This document shows positions 1,411-35,592 of a DNA stretch of 64,000 bases, piece after piece. This stretch comes from a plasmid. The notes under the pieces are model-generated. The model saw nothing but the letters and a program-made list of their open reading frames with translations, was not told where the DNA came from and did not search any database. Where the stretch lies: sequence record NZ_CP064874.1; one strand, written 5' to 3'. The first letter of the stretch is position 1. Every line of letters begins with the position of its first letter. Made by a program: the position numbers and the translations under genes.

Positions 1411-2541
1411 GTGCGAGTGGTCTGGCCGGATAGCGTTGGGATCGTGCCGAAGTCGTTGTCGATGAATGAGATCCGAGCCCGCGCTGCGCAGTTCACCCGT
1501 GACTGGCAGGACGAGCCCGGCGACGAGCGACAGCAAGCGCAGTCCTTCGTCCGGGATCTGCTCGGCGTGTACGGGATAACCCAGACCCGCGCGGCGTTCT
1601 ACGAGAAGCGTGTCAAGCGCTCGTCGACCGGCTCGCGCGGATACATCGACGCGCTGATCCCTGGTCTCGCGCTGATCGAAATGAAGTCCGCCGGCAAGGA
1701 TCTCGTCGCGGCTGAGCAGCAGGCGCTCGACTACATTGACGACCTTCCTGACCCGGAGGTTCCTCGGTGGGTAATCACGAGCGACTTCCGCCGGTTCCGT
1801 CTGCTCGATCTCCACGCTGAGAGCGAGGGTGTGCAGGAGTTCGCCCTGACCCAGATGCGGGATCGCGCTGACGTGCTCGCCTTCCTCGCCGGGTACGGTG
1901 AGCGCACCTTCGGATCGAAGGCGCAGGAGTCTGCGTCGATCAAAGCGGCAAAGCTGATGGCGTCCCTCTACGAGGCCCTCGAGGGGTCTGGGTACGACGA
2001 TCACGAGGCGTCGGTGTTCCTGGTGCGCACCTTGTTCGCCCTCTACGCCGATGACGCCGGAGTGTGGGATCGCGATCTGTTCCTCGAGTTCCTCGAGACC
2101 CGCACCGCGACGGATGGTTCCGACCTCGGGCCTCAGCTGTCGTTGCTGTACCAGGTCATGGGACGTGAGCCGTCTCGTCGGCAGTCAAACCTCGACGAGC
2201 TAATCTCGCGATTCCCCTACGTCAACGGTGGAGTCTTCGAGGAATCGGTGTCGATCCCGTCGTTCGACGCAGGCATGCGTGACCGGCTGATCGCGGCTGC
2301 AATGTTCAACTGGTCGGCGATCTCGCCGGCCATCTTCGGCAGCCTCTTCCAGGCCGTCAAAGACAAGACCGCTCGGCGTGAGCTCGGCGAGCACTACACC
2401 ACCGAGACCAACATCATGAAGGTCATCGGCCCGATGTTCCTCGATGAGCTGCGGCAGCGGTTCACGGACGGGTACCACGACACCGCCAAGCTCAAGAAGC
2501 TGCGTGCGGACATGGGGCTGATGCGATTCCTTGATCCAGCG
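1411..2541 (+). pseudogene. MmeI-family type IIG restriction-modification enzyme, N-terminal fragment (endonuclease domain, helical spacer, start of MTase motif I), disrupted by insertion
   Basis: MNEIRARAAQFTRDWQDEPGDERQQAQSFVRDLLGVYGI...LIEMKSAGKDL...DFRRFRL matches the MmeI N-terminus motif for motif. Homology stops after ...FLDPA (codon gcg at 2539-2541); the residues after that in the ORF are insertion-derived. The true start is probably the Met at 1462. Confidence 0.85.
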
Positions 2542-2542
2542 T

Positions 2543-2575
2543 TTATGCGCAAGTCGGGTGTCTCACGAGACAGCG
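2543..2575. repeat. left terminal inverted repeat of the 31-kb insertion
   Basis: ttatgcgcaagtcgggtgtctcacgagacagcg aligns at roughly 70% with the reverse complement of 33848..33880 (shared TTATG.G.A.G.TCGG.T..GTGTCTCA..CGAC). Confidence 0.45.
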
Positions 2576-2890
2576 GAAGATCGGCCATCAACTCGGGTGG
2601 GCTGGGGGCTCACGATAGCGGCGGTAAGCCATCCGGCTTCTACGACAATTCGGGAGTAGCGCGTTCAGCAGCAGCTGCTGCGACCGCGCGTGCAGTTACG
2701 GCGGTTGCCAGCAGGTGACTCTTGGCCGCCCGATCGGGTTGCCACGAATTGTCTGCAGCCACCGTACCCAGCTCTTCCAACACAACTGCGAGGGCGGCCT
2801 TGACATCATCCTCGCCGATCGCGAGTGGCGCCTGCGCAAGCTGCGTGAGTTGCGTCGGGTTGAACACCTGTGCCCCGAGCGCTTTCGTCA

Positions 2891-3145
2891 CTAGGGCGTG
2901 TTGATCAAGAGGTTCAGGCTCAGGATCGGCGAGTCTCGATGGTGTGACGCGTCAGGAGATCTCGGATGAGGTGTGGGCTGTTCTGGAGCCGCTGATGCCG
3001 GTGCCGGTTGGCAGGTCGCGGCCGTGGACGGATCATCGTCTCGCGGTCGAGGGCATGGCCTGGAAGTACCGCACGGGGGCGCCCTGGCGGGATGTGCCGG
3101 AGCGGTTCGGGAAGTGGAACTCGATCTACAAGCGGTTCGCGCGCG
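2891..3145 (+). mobile_element. IS5-family (IS427/IS1031-like) fragment: left IR plus N-terminal part of OrfA
   Basis: IR CTAGGGCGTGTTGATCAAGAGG at 2891-2912. ORF 2944.. encodes MTRQEISDEVWAVLEPLMPVPVGRSRPWTDHRLAVEGMAWKYRTGAPWRDVPERFGKWNSIYKRFAR, a DUF4096-type OrfA N-terminus. Homology is lost after about 3140. Confidence 0.6.
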
Positions 3146-3163
3146 CCCTACAAGCTGTCCGAG

Positions 3164-3616
3164 GTGGAGAACCGAACTCTCAAGTCCGAGCACCCTCAGG
3201 AGAACCGATGCTCCTTCTGCGTCGGCCAGAAGAACTACACCTGGTACCCCGTCGAGGACATCACGGTCGTACGCCGCTGGACCGCGAGTAGCGTCTACTG
3301 GCCAGACCGCGGAGGTAGAGAATCGGGCGGCTGGTACTCATGGAGATGCCCCAGCCACCCCTTTGATGGCAAGCCCTCGCCGCGGGTACACGATGCCCCC
3401 GATCATCTTCGCCCGAAGTACACCGCGCGATGTCGCATTGTGGAGCTGGGGCGCGCCTGCGGCGAACCCGCAGTCGGCCGCTTCGATAGCGCGTGGCTTT
3501 GCGAACGTCATGCCAGGCCAGTCCTCCTCAGTCAGCGAGACGAGGGGCTGCTGCGAGATGACGACCTTCAGATCAGCGACCCGAACGAAGCGCCTGACGG
3601 CCCAGCCGAGAGATAG
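3164..3616 (+). CDS. hypothetical Cys-rich protein (possible fragment)
   Basis: Open frame with good GC3 (…CSFCVGQKNYTWYPVEDITVVRRW…WRCPSHPFDGKPSP…). It has no ATG; the only candidate start is a GTG at 3164. It lies immediately after the IS fragment breakpoint. Confidence 0.25.
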   Translation: MENRTLKSEHPQENRCSFCVGQKNYTWYPVEDITVVRRWTASSVYWPDRGGRESGGWYSWRCPSHPFDGKPSPRVHDAPDHLRPKYTARCRIVELGRACGEPAVGRFDSAWLCERHARPVLLSQRDEGLLRDDDLQISDPNEAPDGPAER

Positions 3617-3814
3617 AGGGGGCCCGGGGGTTCGCGGCGGCGGTGCCCCGACGGGAAAACCGCGTATCGGTTACAGGAAACGCAGGAACAGCACCACGCC
3701 CCGATCCGCACCAGGACAGGTTGTGCCAACAGCCCACCATCGTCGTGTCTGCTGACCCGGAAAGTTCGCGCGTTCACGCGGCCGTAACGCGGACGCAATC
3801 GTCCCGACGCGGAC

Positions 3815-4003
3815 GTGCGTAACTCTTACTGTGATCACAAATCACAAGAGCGGAGCACGTATGGAAGCGCAGCTGTCAACCTCGCCGCACCGTCCTGGTC
3901 GACCGTCGTGGCCGGGCTCGCCGTCTCGGCGGTCGCGTACCTCGCGCTCAGCATGCTGACCCGCACAGCCTCTCGCACCCCGGCTGTCACGACGGCCGCC
4001 TGA
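3815..4003 (+). CDS. possible small membrane protein
   Basis: Frame contains a hydrophobic stretch WSTVVAGLAVSAVAYLALSML and ends 35 bp before the amidase gene. The start codon is uncertain. Confidence 0.2.
   Translation: MRNSYCDHKSQERSTYGSAAVNLAAPSWSTVVAGLAVSAVAYLALSMLTRTASRTPAVTTAA
3830..3846. promoter_or_regulatory. palindromic motif TGTGATCACA(AATCACA) upstream of the small-ORF/amidase unit
   Basis: A 10-bp perfect palindrome followed by a third half-site, about 200 bp upstream of the amidase start. Confidence 0.25.
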
Positions 4004-4037
4004 ACCAGACGACCTCCCTCCCGAAAGGAATCCGCTG

Positions 4038-5492
4038 ATGCCCCAGAACCACAACGTCGAAGAGCTCACCATCGCTCGCTTCCACGAAGGGATACGCACG
4101 GGGCAGCTGACCTCGCGCGCGCTCACCCAGTGGTACCTCGACCGCATCGCGGCACACAACGTCGACGGGGCCGCGATCAACGCCGTGGTCACGGTCAATC
4201 CGTCGGCGCTCGCCGAGGCGGAGGCGCGGGACGCCGCGTTCTCCGCCTCGGGGCAGCTCACCGGCCCGCTCCACGGCGTCCCGATCCTGGTGAAGGATCA
4301 GGCCGAGACGGCGGGCATCGCCACGTCGTTCGGATCGGCCGCCTTCGCCGATTACATCCCCGAGGCCGACGCGCGGGTCGTCGCGCTGCTGCGCGCGGCC
4401 GGCGCGGTTATCCTCGCCAAGACGGCCATGTGCGACTTCGCGGCCGGCTGGTTCTCGTCGTCGTCGCGGACGGGCCACACGCGCAACGCGTACGACCCGG
4501 CGCGCGACTCGGGCGGGTCCAGCGCAGGCACCGGCGCGGGTGTCTCGGCCGACTTCGGCCTCGTGGGCGTGGGCGAAGACACCGGCGGCTCTATCCGCAT
4601 CCCCGCGTCGTTCAACAACATCTACGGTCTGCGGGTGACGACCGGCCTGATCAGCCGCACCGGGTTCTCGCCGCTCGTCCACTTCCAGGACACCCCCGGT
4701 CCGATGGCGCGCACGGTCGAGGACCTCGCGACGCTCCTCGAGGTGATGGTGGGGTACGACCCCGCCGACGAGTACACGGCGGTGGCCGCCACGGAGCCGT
4801 CGGTCGGCGGATACGCCGCGGCCGTCGTCGACGCGCCGCCCATGTCGCAGTGGTGTGTCGGGGTGCTCGAGACCGCGTTCGGCAGTGGGGGCGACGCCGA
4901 AGAGGTCAACCGGGTGGTGCGCGACGCGATCGCGGCGATGGCGGATGCGGGTGCGACGATCGTCGAGGGCCTCGAGATCGACGGCCTGCCGGAGTGGATC
5001 TCCGACACGTCGGTCTACAGGCAGTCGCGGAGCGACCTGAACCGCTTCCTCGGGTCACGGAAAGGCCCCGTCTCCTCTTTCGATGAGCTGAACGACCTCA
5101 TCCCCGCGATCGCAGCCGGGCCTGAACAGGTCGAGGGCGATGCCGAGGTGACACGCCTCCGCCTCAACCAGGAGCACTTCCGCCGCCTGCTGCGCACGCT
5201 CTTCGCCGACTCGGGTGCCGCCCTGATCGTCTATCCCACCGTGCAGGTGCCGGCGCCGACGCATGACGGGCTCCGCTCGGGCGAGTACACCGCCCTCACG
5301 TTCCCCACCAACACGGTCATCGCCTCGCAAGCGGGCTTCCCCGCCGTCTCGATCCCGGTCGGGTTCACCGAGAGCGGGCTCGCGGTCGGGCTCGAAGTGC
5401 TGGGCACGCCGTTCACCGAGCAGCGCCTGCTGCAGTTCGCGGCTGCCCTCGCCCCGCTCGTCGACGCGCGTCGGGCGCCGGTCCTTGGCTGA
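4038..5492 (+). CDS. amidase (amidase-signature family)
   Basis: 484 aa. Contains the GGSSAGTGAGVS(A) and GVGEDTGGSIRIPASFNNIYGLRVTTG signature motifs. Confidence 0.85.
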   Translation: MPQNHNVEELTIARFHEGIRTGQLTSRALTQWYLDRIAAHNVDGAAINAVVTVNPSALAEAEARDAAFSASGQLTGPLHGVPILVKDQAETAGIATSFGSAAFADYIPEADARVVALLRAAGAVILAKTAMCDFAAGWFSSSSRTGHTRNAYDPARDSGGSSAGTGAGVSADFGLVGVGEDTGGSIRIPASFNNIYGLRVTTGLISRTGFSPLVHFQDTPGPMARTVEDLATLLEVMVGYDPADEYTAVAATEPSVGGYAAAVVDAPPMSQWCVGVLETAFGSGGDAEEVNRVVRDAIAAMADAGATIVEGLEIDGLPEWISDTSVYRQSRSDLNRFLGSRKGPVSSFDELNDLIPAIAAGPEQVEGDAEVTRLRLNQEHFRRLLRTLFADSGAALIVYPTVQVPAPTHDGLRSGEYTALTFPTNTVIASQAGFPAVSIPVGFTESGLAVGLEVLGTPFTEQRLLQFAAALAPLVDARRAPVLG

Positions 5493-5544
5493 CGCGCGGC
5501 CGATGCAGGGGTCGGCGCCGCTCGCACGGCCCGCCCCGCGGAGG

Positions 5545-6282
5545 ATGGACATCAACGCCGATCTCGGCGAGAGCTTCGGCGCGTACCGGTATGGCAACGA
5601 TGACGAGCTGATGCCGCTCATCACGTCCGCCAACATCGCGTGCGGGTTTCACGCGGGCGACCCGGCGAGCATGCGCGAGGCAGTGCGGAGCGCGATCGAG
5701 CACGGGGTAGCGATCGGAGCGCACGTGGGCCTTCCCGACCGGCTCGGCTTCGGCCGACGCGAGATCGACATCAGCGTTGCAGACGCGTACGACTACACCC
5801 TGTACCAGTTGGCCGCGCTCGACGGGTTCGTACGGGCGGCCGGAGCTCGGATGCGCCACGTCAAGCCGCACGGCGCGCTCTACATGATGGCGTCGAAGAG
5901 CCCCGATCTTGCGGAGGGGATCAGTGCGGCCGTCCGCGACTTCGACCCCACGCTGGCGATGTACGTGCTGCCCGGTTCCCACGCCGAGCACGCCGCGGAG
6001 AGCGCCGGGCTTGCCGTACGGCGGGAGTTCTTTGCGGACCGCCCGTACGAGGGCAGCGACGTCGTCATGTTCGGGTGGACCTACGATCAACTCGGCGGTG
6101 AGCAGGGTGCTGCCTCCCGCGTCGCAGCGATGCTGGGCAACCGCGCCTTCGGATCCGTCGAGACGATCTGTGTGCACAGCGATACGGACGAAGCCCCGGA
6201 GCTTGTGCGAGCTGTCCGATCTGCTTTGCGTCACCGGCAGGTCGCGGTCGGGCTGTCCGCACCTCGAGCGGAGGGCGAGTAG
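5545..6282 (+). CDS. pxpA: LamB/YcsF family 5-oxoprolinase subunit A
   Basis: Starts MDINADLGESFGAYRYGNDDELMPLITSANIACGFHAGDP, the canonical LamB/YcsF N-terminus. The ORF-track entry 5263..6282 is an upstream extension that overlaps the amidase. Confidence 0.8.
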   Translation: MDINADLGESFGAYRYGNDDELMPLITSANIACGFHAGDPASMREAVRSAIEHGVAIGAHVGLPDRLGFGRREIDISVADAYDYTLYQLAALDGFVRAAGARMRHVKPHGALYMMASKSPDLAEGISAAVRDFDPTLAMYVLPGSHAEHAAESAGLAVRREFFADRPYEGSDVVMFGWTYDQLGGEQGAASRVAAMLGNRAFGSVETICVHSDTDEAPELVRAVRSALRHRQVAVGLSAPRAEGE

Positions 6283-6496
6283 GAGTAACCACAGCGCTCG
6301 ATCCGTCGTTCAGCCGCGTTCCTTTAGCCCACTGGCGCGCAAGAGGCCCGGAATTTCCACTGTCATCTCGCAGGACATCGGTGACACTTCTCGCGGTCTT
6401 GGTGGTAACACTTCGGCCGGTCGTATTGGTAAGTGACCCCTTCTGAGCCTGTTGATTCTCGTGTTCGTCTCGCCATCACGCAGTGGCCCGATAACG

Positions 6497-7954
6497 GGCT
6501 CTTCGGACATTCGGTGGGGGTCATGGGGTGAGTCCGCCGGCGGCGAGGAGCATGCGGAGCCGGTAGTTGTCGCGGTTGCGGAAGCCGCGGGCGAGGCGGC
6601 GGTGCAGCTCGATGATCCCGTTCACGGCCTCAGTGCCGCCGTTCGATGATCGTCCGGTCGTGAAGTAGGCCAGGAACGCGGCTCGCCAGCGGCGGAGGGT
6701 GCGGCCGAGGCGGGCGATCTCGGGGATCGGGCAGGTGTGGAATGTGTCGACGACCTTCTCCGCGATCTGGCGGCCCTCGGCGAGGTCCTTCTGGTGGTAG
6801 GCGGAACGCAGTTGCTGGGCGCACTGCCATGCGACGAACACCTCGTCGTGCGCGGGGTCGGCCTCGATCGCTGCCGCGAGCCTGGTCCGCTGCTTCTCGG
6901 TGAGGTTCTCGGCGCCGGCGCGGAGGATGGTCTGGATCCCGTAGAGCGGGTCGCCGGTCCGACCGCGATGCCCGAGGGTGTCCTGCTGGACGCGGCGGCG
7001 GACCTCGTCGACGGCGGCGGTGCCGAGCTTGACGACGTGGAATGCGTCCAGCACGGCCGTGGCGTCTTCGAGCTGGTCGTCGATCGCGGTCTTGTAGCCG
7101 GCGAACGGGTCAAGAGCCGCGACTTTCACGTTCTGCCGGAACGCTTCGCCGCGTTCGGCGAGCCAGGACGCGTAGGCCTTCCCGGAGCGGCCCGGCACCA
7201 GGTCGAGCAGCCTGGCCCGCGTCTTCCCGTCCGCGTCGCGGCTCAGATCGACCATCCCGGTAAGCTCCTTCGGACCGCGCTTGCGGGGGTCGACGTGATG
7301 CCAGATGTGCTCATCGACACCGAGCGTGGTGACGTTCTCGAATCGGGACTCGTCGGCCGCGAGCCGCTCCAACTCAGGCTCGACAGCGCGCCACACCGTC
7401 TTCCACGACGTGCCGAGCTGACGGGCGATACCGTGCACGGTGGCGTGCTCGCGGCGCAGCTGCCCGATCGCCCAGCCGACGGCGCGCGTGGTGATCGACC
7501 CGCGCCGGGCGACCAGACCCGGGAGCTGCTCCACGAACGTCCGCCGCGCGCATCCCACCTCGTCGCACCGCCAGACCCGCTGCCGCCATACGATCCGCAC
7601 CCGCGTCGTCGCGGGCACATCATGAAGCACCCGTCGACGGCGTCCGCGGCCGGTCGCGACGACCCCACACGAGGGGCAGCCGGTCGGCGCCGCTGGCGTC
7701 GAGACCGTCACCACCAGCAGCCCGTCGCGACGGTCGACGCGCTCGACATGGACATCGGGAAGACCCAGCAGAACGTCGCAGCGGGAACACGGATCAGCGG
7801 CAGAGCGCGCGGAAGCGCACCCCGAAGTAGGGTGAAGCACGTCGAGGTCCTCGTGAAGATCAGACAGTTAGCGCTACTGATCCTCGGGGACCTCGACCCC
7901 TACCCGCCGAACCCCACCCGGCAAGCCTCACCCCCACCGAATGTCCGAAGAGCC
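6497..7954 (-). mobile_element. ISL3-family insertion sequence (copy 1), 1458 bp, 8-bp TSD CGATAACG
   Basis: Terminal IRs GGCTCTTCGGACATTCGGTGGGGGT (6497..) and its reverse complement (..7954). Flanking direct repeats cgataacg at 6489-6496 and 7955-7962. Confidence 0.85.
6521..7840 (-). CDS. ISL3-family transposase
   Basis: 439 aa with an N-terminal zinc finger (CPSCG) and a typical ISL3 core (…LGVDEHIWHH…). The start is a GTG. Confidence 0.85.
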   Translation of the reverse strand: MLHPTSGCASARSAADPCSRCDVLLGLPDVHVERVDRRDGLLVVTVSTPAAPTGCPSCGVVATGRGRRRRVLHDVPATTRVRIVWRQRVWRCDEVGCARRTFVEQLPGLVARRGSITTRAVGWAIGQLRREHATVHGIARQLGTSWKTVWRAVEPELERLAADESRFENVTTLGVDEHIWHHVDPRKRGPKELTGMVDLSRDADGKTRARLLDLVPGRSGKAYASWLAERGEAFRQNVKVAALDPFAGYKTAIDDQLEDATAVLDAFHVVKLGTAAVDEVRRRVQQDTLGHRGRTGDPLYGIQTILRAGAENLTEKQRTRLAAAIEADPAHDEVFVAWQCAQQLRSAYHQKDLAEGRQIAEKVVDTFHTCPIPEIARLGRTLRRWRAAFLAYFTTGRSSNGGTEAVNGIIELHRRLARGFRNRDNYRLRMLLAAGGLTP

Positions 7955-8259
7955 CGATAACGCGCCGCGCGGGGCGGTGAGCACGTTCTGTGTCGAGCAC
8001 GGGATCTCCCGCAAGACGTTCTACGCGATCCGTAAGCGCGTCGCCGAGGAAGGGCCTGCCGCGGCGCTCGAGCCGAGGTCGCGTCGTCCGAAGTCGAGCC
8101 CGTCGAAGCTGAGCGACGAGGTCAAACGGCAGGCAATCGGTGTGCCGGCGGCGTTGGAGCAGTCCGGGCTGGACCACGGTCCGATCAGCGTGCACGACAG
8201 GATGCGCACGCTGAGGATGGACCCTGTGCCGTCGACGGCGTCGCTGGCGCGGATCTCCT

Positions 8260-8329
8260 CTAGGCCGTGTTGATCATGAGGGTTCACTCACCCACCGAGG
8301 AGCGGAACCTCTTGATCAACACGCCCTAG
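8260..8329. mobile_element. 70-bp MITE-like element made of IS5-family terminal inverted repeats
   Basis: CTAGGCCGTGTTGATCATGAGG (8260-8281), a 26-bp spacer, then CCTCTTGATCAACACGCCCTAG (8308-8329). The second IR is the exact reverse complement of the IR at 2891-2912. Confidence 0.55.
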
Positions 8330-9835
8330 GAAGCTGCTGACGTAAAAGCGTGTGTTCGTTCGAGTAGAGGCATCGGCGGCAACTGCTTCGGTCAAGAGAG
8401 CCGAATCGACTCTACGCTGAACGGTTGCTACCCAAAGGTATACGTCCAGACTCAGAGATGGGTTGAAGACCGCTGCATAGTCTGCCTCGTTGTTGAGCAA
8501 TGTCGACGGGCGTGCACGCGCATCATCAGGTCGGCTCAGTCCAATCGCCATCACGGCCTGCCCGAGTGTGGCGATGCTGATGATCTTGTCGGCTGGCTTT
8601 CCGGCGTTCTTGTAGAAGTTCTTTCGGCGGTCGTAGTACCAGCCCTTCGCGGCGAAGTGCGACTCGATCTGGCGGTGGAGATCCTCGGTCGCATGCAGCG
8701 ACGCGTCTGGAACCTTCGTTTGACTGTTGGTCGCTCGGATCACGTCGTCACGAGTGGCCTCGTCGAGGGTCTTGATTACTCTGACCTGGACAGATCGCCG
8801 CTTGTGGCGCTCAAGGTCGACGCCGGTCGCGGTAAGGACATCGTGGATGGCATGCGAGGTCTGCATGCCATTGACGATCTGCACACCCGACAGAGTGAAG
8901 GTCTTCTCCCCGCCGATATTCACCCCTGAACACAGGATCGTTACCCCGTTGTTTAGCCACCAGAAGTCTCGCTCATCGTCGGCTTCGAGAGTTGCCTGCA
9001 TCTGCCTGTTCACGGTGACTGCGCCCTGGAAGTCGCGAACGTTCCAATCGAACAAATGACCGCGGAGTGCCCCCGACTCGTCAGAAAGGAATCGGAAGTA
9101 CTCGGGTAGCGAGACGAGACCGGCATAGGAGTCGCCTTCCGAGATGTAGTCCCGGAACCGGAGCTGGAGGTCATACTCAGGCGTGGCGCTCGCCATCGCC
9201 CACAGCTCCCTCGCGCCCACGAGGCGCGCCTCGACATCTGACCCAATGACCAGCGAGGAGAGCGCCGCGCGGGTGTCGGCGACCTTCTGTGTAACACCCG
9301 CTGACGCGCTCGTGGTGTCGCCGCGTGACACATATGCGAACGTGATCGAGATGCGTGGCGACCGGATACTGAGCAACGTCCACGCCCTGGTAAACAAGCG
9401 AACACGCGCGATGACATCGGCCGAATAGATCCCAGCCAGCTGCTCGTCGGTGAAGTTCAGGTCGAGCAGCTTCTTCGTGCTCGCGTTCACCTTGTCGAAT
9501 GCGTCCTCGCCGAATCCCTCCGAGCGCTTCGCCTGGATGAGCCACAGGGAAATCTCGGCGCCCTTTCTCACTTCGCTCGGCTTGAAGCCGTCCTCAAACA
9601 CGTCAGAGTCCTCGCTGAGGAGGCGGCCGTCGAGGAAGGTGTAGACGGCGTCAAGCCCGCCGTCCAGTCCTCCGCCGATCCTGCCCGCTTCGATCTCCTC
9701 GTCGCTGAGGTTCTGCCCGCTAAGGACCGTCGCAGCAGCGAACACTTCGAACGCAACGTCATCGGGCAGGGGCGTATCTCGACTGTCCTGCGCCGCCTTG
9801 AGGAACTGATCGACAAGGACAACCTCATTGCTCAT
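8288..9835 (-). CDS. AIPR-family protein (abortive-infection phage-resistance-like); last 14 codons and the stop are supplied by the MITE
   Basis: 515 aa. Carries AIPR hallmarks (…DFWWLNNGVTILCSGV…IVNGMQTSHAIHDVL…). The C-terminal residues LGRVDQEVPLLGG* are encoded by MITE sequence. Confidence 0.7.
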   Translation of the reverse strand: MSNEVVLVDQFLKAAQDSRDTPLPDDVAFEVFAAATVLSGQNLSDEEIEAGRIGGGLDGGLDAVYTFLDGRLLSEDSDVFEDGFKPSEVRKGAEISLWLIQAKRSEGFGEDAFDKVNASTKKLLDLNFTDEQLAGIYSADVIARVRLFTRAWTLLSIRSPRISITFAYVSRGDTTSASAGVTQKVADTRAALSSLVIGSDVEARLVGARELWAMASATPEYDLQLRFRDYISEGDSYAGLVSLPEYFRFLSDESGALRGHLFDWNVRDFQGAVTVNRQMQATLEADDERDFWWLNNGVTILCSGVNIGGEKTFTLSGVQIVNGMQTSHAIHDVLTATGVDLERHKRRSVQVRVIKTLDEATRDDVIRATNSQTKVPDASLHATEDLHRQIESHFAAKGWYYDRRKNFYKNAGKPADKIISIATLGQAVMAIGLSRPDDARARPSTLLNNEADYAAVFNPSLSLDVYLWVATVQRRVDSALLTEAVAADASTRTNTRFYVSSFLGRVDQEVPLLGG

Positions 9836-9895
9836 CGAAGATTCCCGCTTCCTGGTCGCGCTCGACCATCGACACGTTCAGCCAACCTAGCTGTT

Positions 9896-26696: not shown

Positions 26697-26719
26697 CGGT
26701 ACGCCCCGTCCACAGCCGG

Positions 26720-27664: not shown

Positions 27665-27709
27665 GCCTCATGCGGTAGTGGGTGGTGCCTCGACTCTCCG
27701 GTGTTGGAA

Positions 27710-28021: not shown

Positions 28022-28080
28022 GTAGGCCTAATCGGTATGGCAATCTCGGCCTGCAGCGGGAGTCCCGGCGCGTGAAGCGA

Positions 28081-28500
28081 TCAGCTGCCGCGAGGCGTGG
28101 GTGTGGGGGAACGCTTCATCGGAGTGACGTTGCGCGTTGGGTCTTCACCGCGGAGCAGCTGATTCTCGACGTGCAGCTCGGCCACCGCGGTCGCTGCGAT
28201 CGTGAGTTGCGCCTCGAGTTCGCGAATTCGCGCGCGGAGGCCCGCGATCTGTGTCCCACGGTCCGCGAGTGATCGGTTGAGCGCTTCGAGTTCACGATCG
28301 CGCGGCTGGGTTCCGCCTGCCCGCAATGCCCACTCTTCGAGCACGGACTTCGCGCGGTTCATCGTCGCGCGGCTGACACCGGCTTCGCGGTAGAGGTTCT
28401 CCTTGATGAGACGGCCGTCGGTGCGCACTGCTGTGCCAGCGAAGAGCCGCTCCATCGCATCGCGGAGCTTGCGTTCCGACGTGCTGATGGGTTCAGGCAT
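28081..28500 (-). CDS. hypothetical coiled-coil protein, fourth gene of the recombinase-trio operon
   Basis: Start MPEPISTSERKLRDAMERLF at 28500 overlaps the 701-aa recombinase stop by 8 bp. Contains a coiled-coil LRARIRELEAQLTIAATAVAELHVENQLL. Confidence 0.5.
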   Translation of the reverse strand: MPEPISTSERKLRDAMERLFAGTAVRTDGRLIKENLYREAGVSRATMNRAKSVLEEWALRAGGTQPRDRELEALNRSLADRGTQIAGLRARIRELEAQLTIAATAVAELHVENQLLRGEDPTRNVTPMKRSPTPTPRGS

Positions 28501-30598
28501 CCGTGAATCTCCTCGTGATCTTGCGTACGTCTTTGAGTTCGGCCTCGAGCTGCTCGCGATTGTGCGACGCCATGCTGCGGTCGCGGAGCTTTGCCACCAG
28601 ATCGCGCTCTTCGGCGACCCACACGGGCGCGTGTTCATCGGTCACGACCGAATTGCCGCAGGTGGTCGGCTTGCACCGGTTGGGGATCACACCGCTTGCG
28701 GCAGCCTCGGCAGACAGACCTTTGAGGCAGGCCGCCTGTTCCGGATCGCCGAGGCAGTGGTTGATCGTTCCCCACCGCAGCGTGCTGAAGCGGTCACGCA
28801 GCAGAGTGCGCAGGGTCCGCTCATCTCCGACCTTCACTGCGATGTCGACCTCGGCGGTGGCGTTCACGAGCTCGTCTCGGAAGCGTTGTGCGCCTGCGCC
28901 GGCGAGCTTGATGTCGTCGACAGAGTCGGACGACCACATGCCGACGAGGCGTGAGGCGACGGCCTCCTGCAGTTCGTGCTCGAACTCGGCGGCCCACTCG
29001 GGCGTTTCGCTCGCATACCCAGACGTTGTGCCGTTCGCTACGGCCCGACGCGCTGCGTGCTTCAGCTGGATACCGAGCGCGACTTCGCCATCCGGTTGTT
29101 GGGCAGTGATGACGGCCATCGTGCGTCGAAACATGTGCGGGGCGAGATGGAAGTGTGGGATCGGCTCGAAGCCGGCCTCTCGCCCAATGTCGTTGAGCTG
29201 GGGTATGAGCTTCTTCAACTCGTCGTGCCGGTCGAAGGTCACCAGTTGGCCTTCGCTCTTCTGGCTGCGTCGACTCGATCCGAAGACGGCTTCGCCCACC
29301 GCGAGCCGCTCGGCGACGCTGATCGCCTGTGCTACCGGCTCGATGATCCACCAGTTGCGGCGATGCGTTCCGCGCTTGCCTTTCCGTAACTGGGATGCGA
29401 CCGCGGGCGCACCGTAGAAGGTCGTGAGCGCTCCCTTCTTGATGCTCAGCAGCTCGGAGTCGCGCATCATCGAAAGTGCCGCACAGAAGACGTAGCACGC
29501 GTTGCGAAGAACCTTGAGTTGAACTCGAATCGTGGCCGGATCGAAGCCATCGATCCAAGGGCCGGTGGAGCCGTCGGCCTTCCGCACGTCCGTGATCTTC
29601 GAGCGCAGGCCACCGCGCGCAGTGGAGATCTCGCCGGCGTCGATGGCTCTGGCGATTCGTTCGCGTCGGCGCCGCACCTCACTCCGTGATGTCTCGGCGA
29701 ATAGGTGTTTGCTGTGGCCATCGGAAACGAGCAGCGATAGGAGAGTCCAGTGGATCTCACCTTCCGTGAAGCGGCCGGCGGACATGCGATGGAGGGGAAC
29801 AGTCGACCCGGCGGCGACGAGCCAGGTCTCGATTGCGTCGTCGGGATCGCGGACAGCACGGCGTTCCTCGGGTGGACGCTCGAGAGTCGACCATTTGTCG
29901 GCGGCCGCGAAGATGTCGTGCGAGAAGACATCGATGTACTGCCAGCAGGCGCGAAGTAGCGGCCACCAGACGTGAGGTGGGATGACGGGCGTGCTCAGCT
30001 CCTCGCTGAACTTCTGCCCGCTCAGCGCGATCGTGGTCGCCTCACCCCACGGGCGGAACGGGATCCCTCCACCTGTGATGACCCGGTCGTACTGGTGGAG
30101 CGCACGGACGGACTCAATCGCTGCGCGCGTGGAGGACGGGGGAATGCTCGGCTTGATGTCACCAAGGAAGCAGTCGAGATCCGCTTGGTGGAGCTCATTC
30201 AGGGGGACACTGTCGAGGTGCTCGGCATGCCAGGACGCGAATCTCTTGAGTCCGTCGAGTCTTGTGCGGATCGTCTTGGTCTGCGCGGGCGCGGCGGTCA
30301 GGTAGAGGCTCTGATCACGAAGGACCTGGTGTCCCGGATTGAGCATGGCCATCGCGATCTCGCGGGCGCGAAGATTCCAGTCTCCGGTGAACGCGCCGAA
30401 GAGCAGCACCGCTGAGTGGCGCCCCGCCGCGGGGTTCCAACCGAGTGCGCGCAAGTCCCAGCGGGAGTCGTCACCGAACGAAGAGACGGGGTACGACTCC
30501 TCTCGATAGTGATGAGGGAGCACAGATTGCTGGGCGCGCCAGTAGGTGCTGGCGGGGGCGAGTCTCGAGGCATGGCGTGCGGCAGAATCAAGACTCAC
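28493..30598 (-). CDS. tyrosine recombinase, third of the trio (RitC-like; compare Tn554 TnpB-like large recombinases)
   Basis: 701 aa. Putative catalytic boxes …HFHLAPHMFRRTMAV… and …LKHAARRAVANGTTSGYAS…. Overlaps the upstream gene by 4 bp. Confidence 0.65.
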   Translation of the reverse strand: MSLDSAARHASRLAPASTYWRAQQSVLPHHYREESYPVSSFGDDSRWDLRALGWNPAAGRHSAVLLFGAFTGDWNLRAREIAMAMLNPGHQVLRDQSLYLTAAPAQTKTIRTRLDGLKRFASWHAEHLDSVPLNELHQADLDCFLGDIKPSIPPSSTRAAIESVRALHQYDRVITGGGIPFRPWGEATTIALSGQKFSEELSTPVIPPHVWWPLLRACWQYIDVFSHDIFAAADKWSTLERPPEERRAVRDPDDAIETWLVAAGSTVPLHRMSAGRFTEGEIHWTLLSLLVSDGHSKHLFAETSRSEVRRRRERIARAIDAGEISTARGGLRSKITDVRKADGSTGPWIDGFDPATIRVQLKVLRNACYVFCAALSMMRDSELLSIKKGALTTFYGAPAVASQLRKGKRGTHRRNWWIIEPVAQAISVAERLAVGEAVFGSSRRSQKSEGQLVTFDRHDELKKLIPQLNDIGREAGFEPIPHFHLAPHMFRRTMAVITAQQPDGEVALGIQLKHAARRAVANGTTSGYASETPEWAAEFEHELQEAVASRLVGMWSSDSVDDIKLAGAGAQRFRDELVNATAEVDIAVKVGDERTLRTLLRDRFSTLRWGTINHCLGDPEQAACLKGLSAEAAASGVIPNRCKPTTCGNSVVTDEHAPVWVAEERDLVAKLRDRSMASHNREQLEAELKDVRKITRRFTDA

Positions 30599-32415
30599 AG
30601 GTGGACTCCTCGCTGAGCGATGGGGACGTGGACGACTGCGTCGAGATCGTGGGAGCGTTGGGCTCGCTCTCGCTCCGCCGGAGTGAACTCATCCAGGATG
30701 CGCTCGATGTTCCTGAGCTGCTGTCCATGGGTTGCCGCGAACTGGGCGGGCTCCATCTCGTTCTGGTGTCCGCGAAGGATCTCGCGATAGGCGAGGATTC
30801 GAGGCAGGTGGTCGGTGAACACGATCGCGTTGGGGCACGCGAAGCACATCGATGGCCGATGCTCGCATAGACGCCCGCTTCGGCCGTAGGGAGAGTCGTA
30901 CGGTGAGCTGCAGTGCGCGACGTTCATGGCTCGATCCGTCGACGTCGACTCCAACTCGGCTACCGCAGCCACCGCAAGCTCGGGTCGCTCACCAGCCCGG
31001 ATCGACGCAGCACTGGCCTTCACGAACACTGGGCCGCTGACACGGTCGAAGACCTGCTGTTGAGCTGCGTTGACCGCTGCGCCGGCCAGCACGTGAACTG
31101 TCGTCGTCTGCGCGTAGTGGCGCTGGTAGACGGCGATGCTGTGGTCATCGCCTGCCGCAATGTCGGCGCTTCGGAGCACCGCCGCTCGCACACTCTTGAC
31201 TGTCTTTCGCAGTCGGCGCGCGTCGTGAGGTCTGGAGATGGCAGGTGTGATCGACGTCAGAAGGGACGAGAACGAATTCGAGAACGAATCTGGGCGTACC
31301 TCAAGGCGTCTTGACGAAGTTCGGAACACGCTCAAGAACAGGGCGTCATGCACCGGCGACGGGCTGGCTTCCCTCAGTTCCCTCGCCCTGGAAGTCGCAG
31401 CGAGAACCCGCTCGATGAGATCGCCCGACTTCCATCCGCTGCCGCTGGCAGATCCGGACGTGGCGCAGCGTACGATCCGGCTGCGGTGGGCGCGGGCCTT
31501 GTACAGACGGACGCGTAGCGTGTCGGGGTCTGAGATGTCGATGTCGCTCAGCGAGACGTTCGACCACTCCTCGGGAGCGGCGCCCGTCTCGAGCTGCAGC
31601 AGCGTCCTGAACGCGACCAGGTCGTCGCTCGAGGGATAGAGATATGACAGCAATCGCCTGACAACCCGGCCGGAGCCTCCATACGTCGTCGCGTGTTCGG
31701 TTTCGAACGCCTCGTGCAGGTCGTTGAGGACGCCTCGGTCGCACGCCAGCATGGCCTCGCGCTCCACCATGATGCCGTCCGTCCGTCCCAGGTGGTGGAT
31801 GCCCCAGAGGATATCTTCCGCGCGTGACCACCCGTCACCGCGAGGATCGCGCCCGACCTCGAGCAGTTGATGTCCGATCGAGAGTCGCTCCTCCAGCTCT
31901 CGGATGCGGCTGCGGCAGGTATCACGAATCGCAAGACGCTCGGCATTCGAGAACTCGTCGAGAGGCGTCGCGCCGCCGCCCTGATGCAAGACCTGCCCGT
32001 CGGCCCACCGCTCGACGTCGAGGCCGACGTCTCGACCGTTCGCGATGTGGACTCGGACCAACCTTCGAAGCTGTCGACCGTACTTGTACGGCATGGTGCT
32101 CTCGGCGGGGTACGCGGCAGCCAGCCCCGACTCCCACTCATGGATCCCGTCGACCACGACGCGATCGGCCCATGCGAGGCTTGCGGTTCGCGGGCACGCA
32201 TTGGTGAGACTGCGAAGGAGACTGATGACCGCAACACGGTACTGATATGCCGTGCCGTCAGCCAGCGCGAACGTGCGTCTCATGTCGACGAGTGCGTCCG
32301 AGAGCTCAGCGGCCAGGATCGGGTGCGCGAAGTCCAGCGGTCTGATCGTGCCGTCGTTGCTCCCGCCCGCGATCGTGAACGTCATCCGACGAGGGGAGAG
32401 GTCGTGGCCGGTCAT
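30595..32415 (-). CDS. tyrosine recombinase, second of the trio (RitB-like)
   Basis: 606 aa. …RPHDARRLRKTVKS… and …HSIAVYQRHYAQ…. Overlaps both neighbours by 4 bp. Confidence 0.65.
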   Translation of the reverse strand: MTGHDLSPRRMTFTIAGGSNDGTIRPLDFAHPILAAELSDALVDMRRTFALADGTAYQYRVAVISLLRSLTNACPRTASLAWADRVVVDGIHEWESGLAAAYPAESTMPYKYGRQLRRLVRVHIANGRDVGLDVERWADGQVLHQGGGATPLDEFSNAERLAIRDTCRSRIRELEERLSIGHQLLEVGRDPRGDGWSRAEDILWGIHHLGRTDGIMVEREAMLACDRGVLNDLHEAFETEHATTYGGSGRVVRRLLSYLYPSSDDLVAFRTLLQLETGAAPEEWSNVSLSDIDISDPDTLRVRLYKARAHRSRIVRCATSGSASGSGWKSGDLIERVLAATSRARELREASPSPVHDALFLSVFRTSSRRLEVRPDSFSNSFSSLLTSITPAISRPHDARRLRKTVKSVRAAVLRSADIAAGDDHSIAVYQRHYAQTTTVHVLAGAAVNAAQQQVFDRVSGPVFVKASAASIRAGERPELAVAAVAELESTSTDRAMNVAHCSSPYDSPYGRSGRLCEHRPSMCFACPNAIVFTDHLPRILAYREILRGHQNEMEPAQFAATHGQQLRNIERILDEFTPAERERAQRSHDLDAVVHVPIAQRGVHL

Positions 32416-33824
32416 TCTGCCTTCCGATCCGCGAGGACGGCGTCGGCGAAGGTCGCGGCCTCGTCGCTCCAGCTCTCGAACACGTCCTGGATGAGTGCGT
32501 CTGTGTCCTCGATGTATCGCAGGTAGATCATGGTCGTGGCAGGGTTCGAATGGCCAAGAAGTCGCTGCACAGTCAGTCTCGGGTTGATCGCTATGTGCTC
32601 GGACAGAGTGGCCGGTCCGAGGTTGCCAGCGCGGCGGTCGGCCTCACGGGCGAGCGCGACATCGGTGAGTGCCTTGAGGAGCACGACGGCGAAGGTGTGA
32701 CGCAGATCATGCGGTGTGATTTGCGCTCGGCGCCCTCCCATCTCAACTTCAGCGAGCTCAAGGGTGCGACGACTCGCCGCGGCAAACGTGGCATGCCAGG
32801 CTCGTCGACTTATCGGTAGCCCCCCTCGGCCCAGGAACAATCCCAGCGCCTCGAGCCCGTGATCGCGTTCGATCACCGCGATTCGGCGCAGGTGCGGCGG
32901 GAGGAGATGTAGTGGCCATCTCGACCGGCGCCCGTCGAGCCGCCCACGGATGACGCCGGCAGAGACGTCGAGCTCGTCGACGACAAACAGATCGGCTCGA
33001 CGCGACCATAGTGAGTTGGCAGATGCGCGAACGACGGCACGGCGCTCCGTTCGGCGATAGAGGTCGACGGCGCGCAGTGCGGTGAGCGGAACATGGACAC
33101 GGCGCCGCTTCTGGTACTTGGCGCATGCTTCGAGGAGTACGGAGGCACCCGTGCCGGCGGGTGCGGGCAGCTCGGCATCCAGCAACGTCGAAAACTCGCC
33201 GAGTCGCATCCCTGTCGTCACGGCGACCTGCGCGCCAGCCTGGGAACGCAAGCTCGTTCTTCCCCGCCAACTCGCATCCAGCTCGCCGAGTGCGGTTTGC
33301 CCACCGAGGCCGATGTCGCGGAATGCGCGCCACTGCGCCTGACTCAACGGGCGTATGTCTGGCTCACTCCGCCACGGGTTGCGAAGCGCTGACGATCTCC
33401 CGATGGTGATCCACGGCTCACGACGAACCTGCCCGGTCTGCACGAGAAGCTGGTAGATCCCGTGAACGACGACGACGTCGCGTCGCCAGGTTGCCGGCGA
33501 GACTGCGCGATCCCCACCGCCGAGCCGCCACTCTCGGTACGCGACGATATCGTCGGCCGACGCGTGCACCACGTCAGTCCCACGATCTTCGAGGAATCCA
33601 GCGAAGCGAAGCGCGTCGTACGCGTAGTTGCGCACTGTCGACGTTGACGTCGAACCCGCAATGACCCGGAAGTAGGTCTGCCAGGGCTCAACCGGTCGCC
33701 ATCGATCGTCGAGCAGCACGGGCAGTCCGTCGGGAAGCGAACGTGAGCTCGCGTAGACGTCGCGCGTGTCTTCGTCGACGTCAGTGGGCACGGCGAGTTG
33801 GTGGTTGATGAAACGCAGATGCAT
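32412..33824 (-). CDS. tyrosine recombinase/integrase, first of the trio (RitA-like)
   Basis: Clear integrase C-terminus: …ITPHDLRHTFAVVLL… and …LLGHSNPATTMIYLRYI…. The start is taken at MHLRFINHQ (33824), which is preceded by GGAGAG and lies inside the terminal IR. The ORF-track start at 33899 would lie outside the insertion. Confidence 0.8.
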   Translation of the reverse strand: MHLRFINHQLAVPTDVDEDTRDVYASSRSLPDGLPVLLDDRWRPVEPWQTYFRVIAGSTSTSTVRNYAYDALRFAGFLEDRGTDVVHASADDIVAYREWRLGGGDRAVSPATWRRDVVVVHGIYQLLVQTGQVRREPWITIGRSSALRNPWRSEPDIRPLSQAQWRAFRDIGLGGQTALGELDASWRGRTSLRSQAGAQVAVTTGMRLGEFSTLLDAELPAPAGTGASVLLEACAKYQKRRRVHVPLTALRAVDLYRRTERRAVVRASANSLWSRRADLFVVDELDVSAGVIRGRLDGRRSRWPLHLLPPHLRRIAVIERDHGLEALGLFLGRGGLPISRRAWHATFAAASRRTLELAEVEMGGRRAQITPHDLRHTFAVVLLKALTDVALAREADRRAGNLGPATLSEHIAINPRLTVQRLLGHSNPATTMIYLRYIEDTDALIQDVFESWSDEAATFADAVLADRKAE

Positions 33825-33847
33825 CGCTCTCCGAGGTTGTTCGGGTG

Positions 33848-33880
33848 GTCGATTGAGACACTGACCGAACGTACACATAA
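33848..33880. repeat. right terminal inverted repeat of the 31-kb insertion
   Basis: See 2543..2575. It overlaps the ritA-like start region. Confidence 0.45.
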
Positions 33881-33885
33881 CGGCG

Positions 33886-35592
33886 TGCGGCTGTGGCAAC
33901 TTCCTGGTGGTCGGCTACCGACAGATGCGAGCCCTCGATCTTGAGGTTCTGCTGCGGATCCAAGAGCTGTCCGGTGAGACGGCCCGCACAATGTTCTTCA
34001 CCGAGGAGCACCTCGCCGTGCGGCTGTCGAGCTTCCACGGGATCGAGCTCGAGGAATGGCCCGCGCAGATCGCAGCGACGGCGCTGCACCTGGTGGAACA
34101 CCAGGCAAACCAGGCGATGGAGCTGGCGCTTGGATCTGCACCAGATCCGCTGCCGCTGGACAAGATCAAGAGCATCGTCGTCGGCAACGCGCTGCGTGTC
34201 GACTGGGCAGCTGTCCTACAACCGACTGAGCACCTGTACATCATGGGCAATCCGCCCTTCCTCGGCCACGCCACCCGCTCGACCGAGCAAGCGCAGGAAC
34301 TTCGCGACGTGTGGCGGAGGGACGACATCGGTCGGCTGGACTATGTCACCGGCTGGTACGCGAAGGCTCTCGAGCTGCTCGGCCGTCCCGGCTACCGAGG
34401 CGAGTTCGCGTTCGTCTCGACAAACTCGATCGCACAGGGAGAGCCGGTGCCAGCGCTCTTCGGCCCTGTGTTTGCCGCAGGGTGGCGCGTCAAGTTCGCG
34501 CACCGGACGTTCGCGTGGACCAGTGAAGCGCCCGGCGCTGCGGCAGTGCATTGCTCGGTGATCGGTTTTGACCGGCCGTCGAGGAAGAGAGCGCGGCTGT
34601 TCGACTACTCAGGAAACCTCAAGGGCGAGCCCGTCGAGATCCCCGTCGTGGATCAGCTCAACGGATACCTGGTCGACGGTCCCATTGTGCTAATCGATCA
34701 GCGGCGAAGCCCGCTGGCGTCGGCTCTCCCTCCGATGGTGTTCGGGAACATGGCTCGCGACGACGGCAATCTCCTGATCGAGCCGGCCGACTATGCGGAA
34801 GTGATGGCAGATCCGATCGCCGCGAAGTACGTCCGGCCGTTTGTCGGCGCCCGACAGCTCATCCACAACGAACCCCGGTGGTGCCTGTGGCTCGTGGATC
34901 TTGACCCCAGCGACATCGCCCGATCCCCGATACTCCGCGGGCGGCTGGATGCCGTGCGTCAGTTCCGCGCAGCGTCGAAGGCCGAGTCCACGCGACAGAT
35001 GGCGGACACGCCGCACCTGTTCGGTCAAAGGTCGCAACCCGACACGCCCTATGTCTGTGTGCCGCGGCATGTGAGCGAGACACGCAAGTTCTTCCCGACC
35101 GCCCTGTTCACCCCTGATGTGATCTGCGGTGACGCGAACTTCAAGGCAGACGACCCAGACGGCCTCGCCTTCGCAGTGATCTCGTCGTCGGCATTCATCA
35201 CCTGGCAGCGCACTATCGGCGGTCGCCTTGAGTCTCGTCTGCGCTTCTCGAGCACCCTGACGTGGAACACTTTCCCCTTGCCCGCCCTCACCGACACGCA
35301 GCGTGCCGCCATCATCGCCGGGGGGCAAGCCGTTCTGGATGCGAGAGCGCTACGCCCAGAACGCTCGCTCGCAGACCACTACAACCCCCTCGCGATGTCG
35401 CCCGAACTGCTCCGGGCGCATCGTGAGCTCGACACTGCTGTCGACAAGGCCCTGGGCCTGCGGGGGATAGCGACGGAGGCTGACCGACTGCGAGCGCTGT
35501 TCGCCAGCTATGCGAAGCTCACCACGGTCGACGAGCTCGCGATGCCGAAGAAACGTCCCCGCAAGGCGACAGCAGCGAGTGCGGCATCGTGA
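33886..35592 (+). pseudogene. MmeI-family type IIG RM enzyme, C-terminal fragment (rest of MTase motif I, NPPF motif IV, target-recognition domain)
   Basis: Frame reads CGCGNFLVVGYRQMRALDLEVLLRI…EEWPAQIAATAL…YIMGNPPFLGH…AHRTFAWTSEAPGAAAVHCSVIGF…SLADHYNPLAMSPELLRAHRELDTAVDKALG, colinear with the MmeI C-terminal 560 aa. It has no start codon of its own. Confidence 0.85.

Follow-up and report, generated by a model that had tools for sequence, protein, structure and literature searches.

A tyrosine-recombinase element of Actinomycetota that appears to integrate into motif I of unrelated N6-adenine methyltransferase genes

The described mobile elements closest to the one reported here are those known as SE (strand-biased circularizing integrative element) and GInt. 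SEs have a core operon, intA-tfp-intB-srap, at one end and are bounded by imperfect inverted repeats called C and C'. Experiments with SE-6945 showed that attB supplies the 6 bp adjoining C at attL, and the donor attL those adjoining C' at attR (PMC9345347). GInts have a ginABCD operon in which GinA and GinB are catalytic, GinC is degenerate, and GinD is small. They are site-specific and are flanked by 10-11-nt imperfect direct repeats, with an AT-rich 3' end. GInt-like elements are reported to home into rulB on plasmids (PMC4542609). Here, we analyse 64,000 nucleotides of the plasmid record NZ_CP064874.1 (this whole stretch is called the window), in which a type IIG restriction-modification (RM) gene of the MmeI family is split into two parts. 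We propose, with a probability of about 0.85, that the gene was interrupted by a 31.3-kb SE/GInt-like element with several tyrosine recombinases, which integrated site-specifically into the DNA encoding methyltransferase motif I of this gene on a plasmid-like backbone.

Four minus-strand genes whose stops and starts overlap lie just inside the right end of the element (Table 1). The first encodes an IntA-like tyrosine recombinase in which R, HxxR, H, and Y are present; its homologues are called at 466-497 aa, and its start is likely M26 of the open reading frame (ORF) 32412..33899. The second protein lacks the box-I arginine (the sequence there is TGAAPEE), keeps HxxR, H, and Y, and had no match in Pfam, NCBIfam, or PADLOC. 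The third is large and IntB-like, and its R379, H488, R491, H514, and Y528 are invariant in an alignment of 18 homologues that range from Microbacterium to Streptomyces. The fourth protein is small, with a helical or coiled-coil C-terminus, and its gene starts before the stop of the third. Conserved clusters of four cysteines near the C-terminus of the second (C502/C517/C524/C527) and third (C615/C624/C642/C647) proteins may be zinc-binding modules; the first recombinase has no such C-terminal cluster. The gene for an XRE-like helix-turn-helix protein (HTH) also belongs to the backbone of the element, since it is 71-99% identical in the related loci L002-L006, L013, L017, and L031.

The layout of this module is that of the SE core operon: four overlapping genes at one end, in the same order and of similar sizes (545/614/671/161 aa in SE-Pda04Ya311 and 429/576/679/154 aa in SE-PaeBT2436). 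In SEs as in the window, Pfam recognises nothing in the second protein, and a long, complete recombinase comes third. They also share imperfect inverted-repeat ends, the same rule of 6-bp spacers, site selectivity, and the lack of transfer genes, the inverted-repeat ends and the hexamer rule being drawn here from comparisons between loci. However, published SEs come only from Gammaproteobacteria, whereas the present hosts are Actinomycetota. The published Tfp is devoid of the RHRY motif, whereas the second protein of the window lacks only its first Arg, and the target in the window is the coding sequence of a protein motif common to many non-orthologous genes. BLASTP against the proteins of the two SEs mentioned above, a tiny database, gave weak and collinear matches for Srap (3e-4), IntB (6e-4), and IntA (3e-3), and none for Tfp.

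GInts are similar to the element in the window in that they have three recombinase-like genes and a small helical protein at one end, and insert with high specificity, often within a conserved gene or at its end. Their cargo spans 2.5-70 kb, and the GInt of P. stutzeri also carries an RM system. Yet the degenerate protein is the third in GInts (GinC) and the second here, where the third is complete, so that the operon is not of the GInt type. Their hosts are Proteobacteria, Verrucomicrobia, Bacteroidetes, and Firmicutes, and not Actinobacteria. The flanking hexamers of the window, with their shared bases, make only a 6-nt imperfect repeat. We did not file the element by sequence under either family, given its marginal collinear similarity to the two SEs and the lack of similarity to a listed E. 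coli GInt. Other elements are less close. By description, Tn554 (tnpA, tnpB, tnpC) makes no target duplication, carries 6 bp from the donor, and has a strong site preference, as we propose here, but it has no counterpart of the degenerate second protein, is hosted by Firmicutes, and targets att554. RIT elements have three recombinases of ordinary size (RitA, RitB, and RitC), long inverted repeats, and no fourth gene; an element with proteins of 470, 606, and 701 aa and a conserved fourth gene is not one of them. The integrative and conjugative elements (ICEs) found in hsdM of Streptococcus likewise use, and disrupt, the methyltransferase gene of a restriction system as an attachment site. In contrast to the present element, they are conjugative, encode serine-integrase triplets, have 2-8 bp direct repeats, and occupy one orthologous gene, and nothing indicates that they recognise a motif common to different methyltransferase families.

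The closest relatives that we found outside Actinomycetota appear, from sequence similarity, to be modules on plasmids of Klebsiella and Alphaproteobacteria. The Klebsiella IncN/IncR plasmid NZ_CP093487.1 (L069, 65871..71233) encodes collinear homologues of all four proteins (BLASTP E 5e-22, 7e-25, 2e-23, and 5e-6). The third protein matches one of the Phaeobacter plasmid pP24_d (L068, NZ_CP010700.1) with an E-value of 3e-51, sizes and overlaps being alike, and it has further matches on Agrobacterium Ti/Ri plasmids, in Sphingobium, and in others (about 200 plasmid records). The Klebsiella and Phaeobacter modules (four-gene and three-gene) adjoin an ABC transporter gene and an ArdC-like gene rather than a methyltransferase motif I. 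Both modules are unstudied, and their annotation goes no further than integrase or hypothetical. None of the protein accessions of the Klebsiella module is listed in the available portion of the SE paper supplements.

Enzymes of the MmeI family combine in one polypeptide a nuclease, a helical spacer, a gamma-class N6-adenine methyltransferase, a target recognition domain (TRD), and a C-terminal domain. They depend on S-adenosylmethionine (SAM) to cleave at a fixed distance from an asymmetric site, and they methylate one strand. Their typical motifs are D-X9-E-X-K in the nuclease, (D/E)PxCGxGxF as motif I, and NPPF/Y as motif IV. In the window, the homologous part of the reading frame 1411..2718 ends with ...MGLMRFLDPA (codon end 2541) and is followed by the unrelated FMRKSGV...; the frame resumes at 33886 as CGCGNFLVVGYRQ... 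and stops at 35592. When 1411..2541 and 33886..35592 are joined, they encode 945 aa, in which Pfam finds the five MmeI domains in order: MmeI_N (2e-33), MmeI_hel (2e-19), MmeI_Mtase (7e-82), MmeI_TRD (5e-64), and MmeI_C (5e-18). The MmeI_Mtase match is a single stretch (residues 356-616) that spans the junction at 377/378. Motif I (FLDPACGCGNFLV) is re-formed across the joint, and both motif IV (GNPPFLG) and the nuclease motif (D80ALIPGLALIE90MK92) can be read from the translation.

An uninterrupted counterpart of 928 aa, WP_193599300, is encoded by plasmid pYJNG of Microbacterium sp. YJN-G. BLASTP aligns it to the joined protein with 896/928 identities (97%) and 0 gaps, and no residue is missing or doubled at the joint of the two halves. 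Considered separately, the halves are 98% and 96-97% identical to the pYJNG protein, with no difference in divergence seen. Residues 18-377 of the ORF align gap-free to residues 1-360 of that protein, and the true start of the split gene is likely M18 (window 1462). The flanks are collinear as well: the nucleotide alignment of the left flank to pYJNG covers 3..2542 (92%), that of the right flank resumes at the same pYJNG position and covers 33883..41037 (87%), and the two overlap by only 4 nt (GCGT). Because the joined protein is gapless relative to pYJNG and both flanks are collinear with this plasmid, we regard the halves as one MmeI-family gene, cleanly cut inside motif I; an origin by chance is impossible. 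The synteny with pYJNG also indicates a plasmid-like backbone. As a side observation on this backbone, positions 48400..50000 are 99.7% identical to NZ_CP012699.1, a plasmid of Microbacterium sp. No. 7, whereas the adjoining 14.5 kb are only 87% identical to pYJNG; the backbone is thus a patchwork of segments from Microbacterium plasmids.

The insertion inactivates the resident type IIG enzyme. The N-terminal fragment retains complete MmeI_N and helical spacer domains (residues 24-276), including D-X9-E-X-K. It is unlikely that this nuclease domain acts alone, because cleavage of the MmeI type needs the methyltransferase/TRD part for DNA recognition, as well as SAM. These results bear out much of an earlier sequence-only reading of this DNA, which had proposed that a single MmeI-family gene is bisected in motif I, its parts not coming from two paralogues, and that the whole nuclease domain persists in the N-terminal fragment. 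The domain boundaries are complementary, no segment is duplicated, and the intact allele lies between syntenic flanks. The same reading had placed the insertion at 2542..33885. Removing this segment does rebuild the frame, but the register is ambiguous, and the element is better described as a core flanked by 6-bp spacers.

Whichever register is chosen, 31,344 bp were inserted; the exact boundary is ambiguous within the GCGT that is repeated at both junctions. The core of the element, 2543..33880, runs from TTATG to CATAA, and its ends are imperfect inverted repeats of about 30 bp: it opens with TTATGCGCAAGTCGGGTGTCTCACGAGAC and closes with an imperfect inverted copy, ...GTCGATTGAGACACTGACCGAACGTACACATAA. 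A hexamer lies between each end and the gene. The proximal one, on the intA side, takes up bases 2-3 of the Pro codon, the Ala codon, and base 1 of the Cys codon. Both hexamers encode P-A-(C), and removal of 31,344 bp therefore restores the frame exactly. We also considered a 3-bp target duplication (GCG), which is ruled out by a related element on plasmid A of Microbacterium sp. No. 7, whose distal (CCGCGT) and proximal (CGACCT) spacers differ at 3/6 positions. A further contig, CALCZA010000073.1 (L030, 8798 bp), starts around 40 nt before intA and stops exactly at the C'-like end TTATGCGCAATCTTGATGTCTCAAGAGAC; it probably represents a complete element in minimal form, about 8.8 kb long, that assembled separately.

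Evidence for site-specific integration comes from other members of the family. The second protein has at least 208 homologues, and every one with a named source is from Actinomycetota. A profile scan of one genome per species gave 58 loci, and in nearly all of them genes 1, 3, and 4 lie side by side in an unchanged order; about 50 loci conserve the module. We read the intA-proximal junction wherever it was present, which resulted in 21 junctions (20 unique), and judged two further loci from gene calls alone. The hosts are Microbacterium, Brachybacterium, Mycobacterium, Skermania, and Gordonia. All of the 21 junctions lie in motif I (DPx|CGxGxF-type) in the same codon register and the same orientation, with intA divergent from the C-terminal half of the target. 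In the clades of Micrococcales and Mycobacteriales, the proximal flank reads, without exception, as a motif I on the reverse strand. The motif following the junction is CGCGNFLV (window, L010, L013), CGSGNFLVIAYKE (L006), CGCGNFLYVSYRE (L022), CGTAGFLVAASEY or VGTAGFLVAAEEY (L007, L005), CGSGAFLF (L003, L064, L066, L067), CGSGNFL(I/V)P (L004, L008, L063), CGSGHFLLGAFERL (L017), CGSGTFLFYAVRRF (L021), TGT(A/G)TF (L018, L025, L062), or SGLGTFLGMAPE (L011). A metagenome scan with the proximal-end pattern added only one of these junctions (L067).

The interrupted genes are diverse. Pfam assigns the target halves to MmeI_Mtase, N6_Mtase (type I HsdM), Eco57I, DUF7008 with Eco57I (PglX-like), and Type_ISP_C. 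The two loci judged from gene calls are a Gordonia hsdM inside an hsdMSR operon and a Brachybacterium MmeI-like gene with the same arrangement. In the target flanks, the conserved bases are the ones that x-G-x-G-x-F dictates: GG at +9/10, G at +15, and TT at +21/22. The element of plasmid A offers a second complete case. Its recombinase genes are about 71-74% identical to those of the window, it carries an Hma-like defence system, and it has an identical proximal terminus and a distal repeat with 1 base changed. It sits in a different gene, of the Eco57I type, split as ...IDPA|CGSGAFLF: the N-terminal half ends with ...ALRVIDPA, followed by the element end TTTATGCGCAAG, and the C-terminal half begins with CGSGAFLF directly after ...ACACATAACGACC. 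A search of plasmids for an intact close orthologue of this target, which would show the native hexamer, gave only homologues below 50% identity.

Judging from these junction sequences, the insertion appears to be targeted to the motif-I coding sequence of unrelated N6-adenine methyltransferase genes, rather than incidental, and the choice of target seems to be a property of the element lineage and not of this particular gene. The sequence-only reading was right that a mobile element had inactivated the gene, but missed the targeting. Our searches of open-access papers and bioRxiv (full text) retrieved no tyrosine-recombinase element that targets methyltransferase motif I across families, nor this actinobacterial module; a paper on Asgard mobile elements that came up is unrelated.

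A clade from Streptomyces, Kitasatospora, Nocardia, and Embleya (L032-L059) has the same four-gene module with other ends (GTTAGG...TGTCTCA), of which two direct copies lie upstream of intA (for example in L034, at around 5290). In several Streptomyces-clade species the element is inside a gene encoding a TadA/CpaF-like secretion ATPase, right after ...ETRPANQEGAG / VRLETRPANQEGAG, and other members of the clade have different conserved flanks. Homing into conserved coding motifs may thus be a wider habit of the family.

Several observations point to recent mobility. The exact second protein of the window is present on at least nine contigs and adjoins at least five other target genes (L004, L062, L063, L064/65, and L066): one type ISP gene, three different Eco57I-like genes, and one CGSGNFLIP-type gene. 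The proximal terminus is identical in L062-L066, and L004 has the same proximal end. Since this identical end abuts different C-terminal halves, we excluded that the methyltransferase C-half is part of the element. The copies next to different C-halves encode an identical second protein, and the nucleotide identity with the element of the window was shown for L062, where it reaches 99.9% over 13 kb. The target gene of the window is itself occupied at the same position by other elements, those of L013 and L010, whose second proteins are 75% and 59% identical. The chromosome of Microbacterium sp. HA-8 (NZ_CP162025.1) carries two members of the family, L006 in an MmeI-like gene and L004 in a CGSGNFLIP-type gene, with second proteins 64% and 100% identical to that of the window. 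Elements can therefore accumulate in one genome and disable several target genes per host.

These data are consistent with an SE-like cycle. The ends of the element would be joined into a circle with a 6-bp spacer (CATAA-N6-TTATG), giving two recombinase arms around a 6-bp overlap. The circle would then recombine with a 6-bp crossover in the target, C-N-G-C-G-T, that spans the Pro-x-Cys codons of D-P-x-C-G-x-G-x-F. The 6 bp of the target would stay at the intA end, and the 6 bp of the donor site would be placed at the other end. The anatomy of the element and the pattern of its hexamers can be read directly in the loci, while analogy with SEs suggests the circle with its 6 bp, the strand bias, and the part played by each of the four proteins. 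The proximal hexamer is CGAC(C/A)T (P-T-C) where different elements occupy orthologous Eco57I-like targets (L003, L066, L067) and C(G/C)TTCA (P-F-T) in three type ISP targets, one of them hit by the very element of the window. It thus follows the family of the target, and in plasmid A the distal hexamer is at odds with the target, which argues that proximal hexamers are native and distal ones imported. In the window, CGGCGT is probably the target's own crossover sequence, and CAGCGT was probably imported from the previous donor site.

Some points weigh against our interpretation. Several loci yielded no readable junction, and both element ends are known for only two insertions (the window and plasmid A), which leaves the left arm of the target poorly sampled. 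In L020, the site is not in a recognisable methyltransferase; it is in a short ORF rich in Gly, and the DNA there is similar to the pattern (GCGGCACTGG....TTC), which suggests that the target is recognised at the DNA level. The nearest intact allele, that of pYJNG, is 13% diverged in DNA and is not a true empty site. The similarity to the SEs that have been studied is marginal (best E 3e-4 to 6e-4 in a tiny database), so that the analogy spans a large evolutionary distance, and the proteins of the window have no significant similarity to the GInt proteins of E. coli Sakai. Finally, the mechanism is built on comparison and analogy.

Even if the targeting is real, its purpose may not be to replace defences. 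Motif I could be a safe landing site, which is conserved, dispensable, and often plasmid-borne, where a non-conjugative element gains a ride on mobile DNA and the loss of restriction is a side effect. This explanation has a little less than an even chance in our judgement. It accords with published SE and GInt elements, which are non-mobilizable, site-selective, and move via plasmids, including the GInt-like elements in rulB (PMC4542609). It also accords with the plasmid location of several targets studied here, and with the clade that sits in a TadA/CpaF-like ATPase gene, where no defence gene is involved. Two observations fit it less well, and neither is decisive. First, cargo of the Hma type or otherwise RM-like recurs in the clades that occupy motif I (window, L003, L005, L006, L017, L028, L062, L073, L075), as expected from a link between cargo and target. 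Second, motif I of the element's own methylase gene, hmaB (window 16597), is DPFCGGGST, without Phe at the x-G-x-G-x-F target position, and this methylase would therefore escape self-targeting; no other target-type sequence occurs within the 64-kb window. We tentatively advance a bolder interpretation, which we judge less likely than not, in which an SE/GInt-like lineage of Actinomycetota would use DNA encoding the SAM-binding motif I as a generic attachment site. One element could then enter and disable systems of the type IIG, type I, type ISP, Eco57I-like, and BREX-like kinds in whatever host or plasmid it meets, while importing an Hma-type system. In its strongest form, the lineage would be adapted to replace restriction systems, with co-evolved target and cargo. 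As for why motif I was chosen, we give roughly equal weight to the removal of resident restriction and to a conserved, dispensable landing site.

The remaining alternatives fare much worse than site-specific integration. An assembly artefact, in which a chimeric contig joins plasmid and island via repeats, could be invoked because the window contains repeated copies of insertion sequences (ISs) and a possible homopolymer error. It is very improbable: both junctions are structured exactly as in independent assemblies of related elements, different elements interrupt the same gene at the same position in L010 and L013, and no junction lies within a repeat longer than 4 nt. Near-random insertion, with the MmeI-like gene as an accidental casualty, is less credible still. 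One split gene alone cannot separate targeted from random insertion, and the element carries ISs that are themselves promiscuous, but the 21 junctions share register and orientation across unrelated methyltransferase families, the two loci known from gene calls agree, and near-identical copies occupy that position in at least five other target genes; the junction census refutes random insertion for practical purposes. That the halves derive from two paralogous MmeI-like genes, or from a naturally split two-subunit enzyme, has a negligible probability even though actinobacterial plasmids often carry such genes (the N-terminal half has matches in 263 plasmid records), since the domain boundaries show neither overlap nor gap, one intact protein is 97% identical across 928 residues, and both flanks are syntenic with the same plasmid.

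With site-specific integration, the split gene needs no special explanation, because it is the attachment site of a mobile island. The four-gene tyrosine-recombinase elements of the SE/GInt kind, reported earlier mostly in Proteobacteria, now extend to Actinomycetota, where about 50 loci can be compared. Their attachment site would be set by a protein motif instead of by one gene, allowing near-identical copies to jump between unrelated genes. Tyrosine recombinases seldom behave in this way, and one may ask how they recognise a site of such degeneracy. An element that carries defences may be inactivating restriction, BREX-like, and type ISP genes systematically, which bears on the turnover of defence repertoires and on the annotation of 'pseudogenised' methyltransferases. 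Given the conserved ends (TTATG...TGTCTCA) and the target pattern, the hypothesis can be tested directly in Microbacterium or Mycobacterium strains that grow in culture.

Table 1. Features of the split gene, the element, and its cargo in the window.
Feature	Position	Strand	Evidence or comparison
N-terminal part of the type IIG gene: nuclease, helical spacer, methyltransferase start to ...RFLD-P	1462..2536	+	gapless pYJNG alignment
Spacer CAGCGT, intA-distal junction, 6 bp	2537..2542	.	SE rule and family comparison
Distal terminal inverted repeat (C'-like), TTATGCGCAAGTCGGGTGTCTCACGAGAC	2543..2571	+	recurs with 1 mismatch in Microbacterium sp. No. 7 plasmid A
Bracketed cargo segment	2891..8329	.	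44-nt, 80% inverted repeats at 2891-2934 and 8286-8329
AbiU-type abortive-infection gene, AIPR domain	8288..9835	-	AIPR 3e-40; AbiU 1.5e-168
HmaC, DUF499 ATPase with N-terminal Swt1-like HEPN	10865..14302	-	PADLOC 1e-267
HmaB, DUF1156 adenine methylase, two ORFs	14253..16927	-	PADLOC profile positions 135-427 and 467-961
HmaA, SNF2/DEAD helicase with NOV_C domain	16924..20412	-	PADLOC bits 1296
Nested composite transposon	22375..27672	.	two identical 960-bp IS5-family copies, inverted
Conserved XRE-like HTH gene, element backbone	27710..28021	-	HTH_31/HTH_3, weak
Fourth core gene, 139 aa, Srap/GinD/TnpC position	28081..28500	-	found in 50 loci
Third core gene, large IntB-like tyrosine recombinase, 701 aa	28493..30598	-	Phage_integrase 0.009 (weak)
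Second core gene, 606 aa, Tfp-like position	30595..32415	-	recombinase fold
First core gene, IntA-like tyrosine recombinase, 470-495 aa	32412..33824	-	Phage_integrase 1.3e-11, SAM_1 9e-8
Proximal terminal inverted repeat (C-like); reverse complement TTATGTGTACGTTCGGTCAGTGTCTCAATCGAC	33848..33880	-	same end in L003-L007, L062-L066
Spacer CGGCGT, intA-proximal junction, 6 bp	33881..33886	.	proximal spacer tracks target family
C-terminal part of the type IIG gene: remaining motif I (C)GCGNFLV, NPPF, TRD, C-terminal domain	33887..35592	+	Pfam, BLASTP

PADLOC identifies an Hma defence system in the cargo, with full-length matches to its three adjacent genes (HmaB, 2e-140; other scores in Table 1), and Pfam and NCBIfam agree. 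Relative to L062, one C is missing from a C5 run of hmaB at around 15824, which splits the gene into the ORFs 15809..16927 and 14253..15842. The L062 copy comes from another assembly, is 99.9% identical, and has an open hmaB frame across the 1.6 kb compared. The frameshift may be a real inactivation or a homopolymer error, and the imported Hma system may be dead here. The claim that the mobile element delivers a defence operon with a methylase is upheld, AbiU coming in addition. The replacement of one defence by another, as put forward in the sequence-only reading, survives in part: the type IIG gene was lost to an Hma-bearing element, but the imported hmaB is frameshifted in the window. The Swt1-like HEPN at the N-terminus of HmaC is recognised by Pfam (2.5e-22), whereas the PADLOC profile of HmaC begins only at residue 183, and the HEPN therefore looks like an extra effector domain. 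Between HmaC and AbiU lies an ORF of 320 aa (9896..10858) for which Pfam, NCBIfam, and PADLOC gave no match and the related loci no homologue.

Two parts of the cargo seem to have been added to the element. The interior of the composite transposon encodes an MMPL transporter (23440..25995) and a TetR regulator (26130..26696). The region 22387..27662 is absent from the otherwise 99.9% identical L062 and is therefore a later insertion. At the other end of the element, the segment bracketed by inverted repeats holds an IS5-like DUF4096 fragment, an amidase, LamB/YcsF, and an ISL3 transposase, and is probably a later, transposon-borne accretion.

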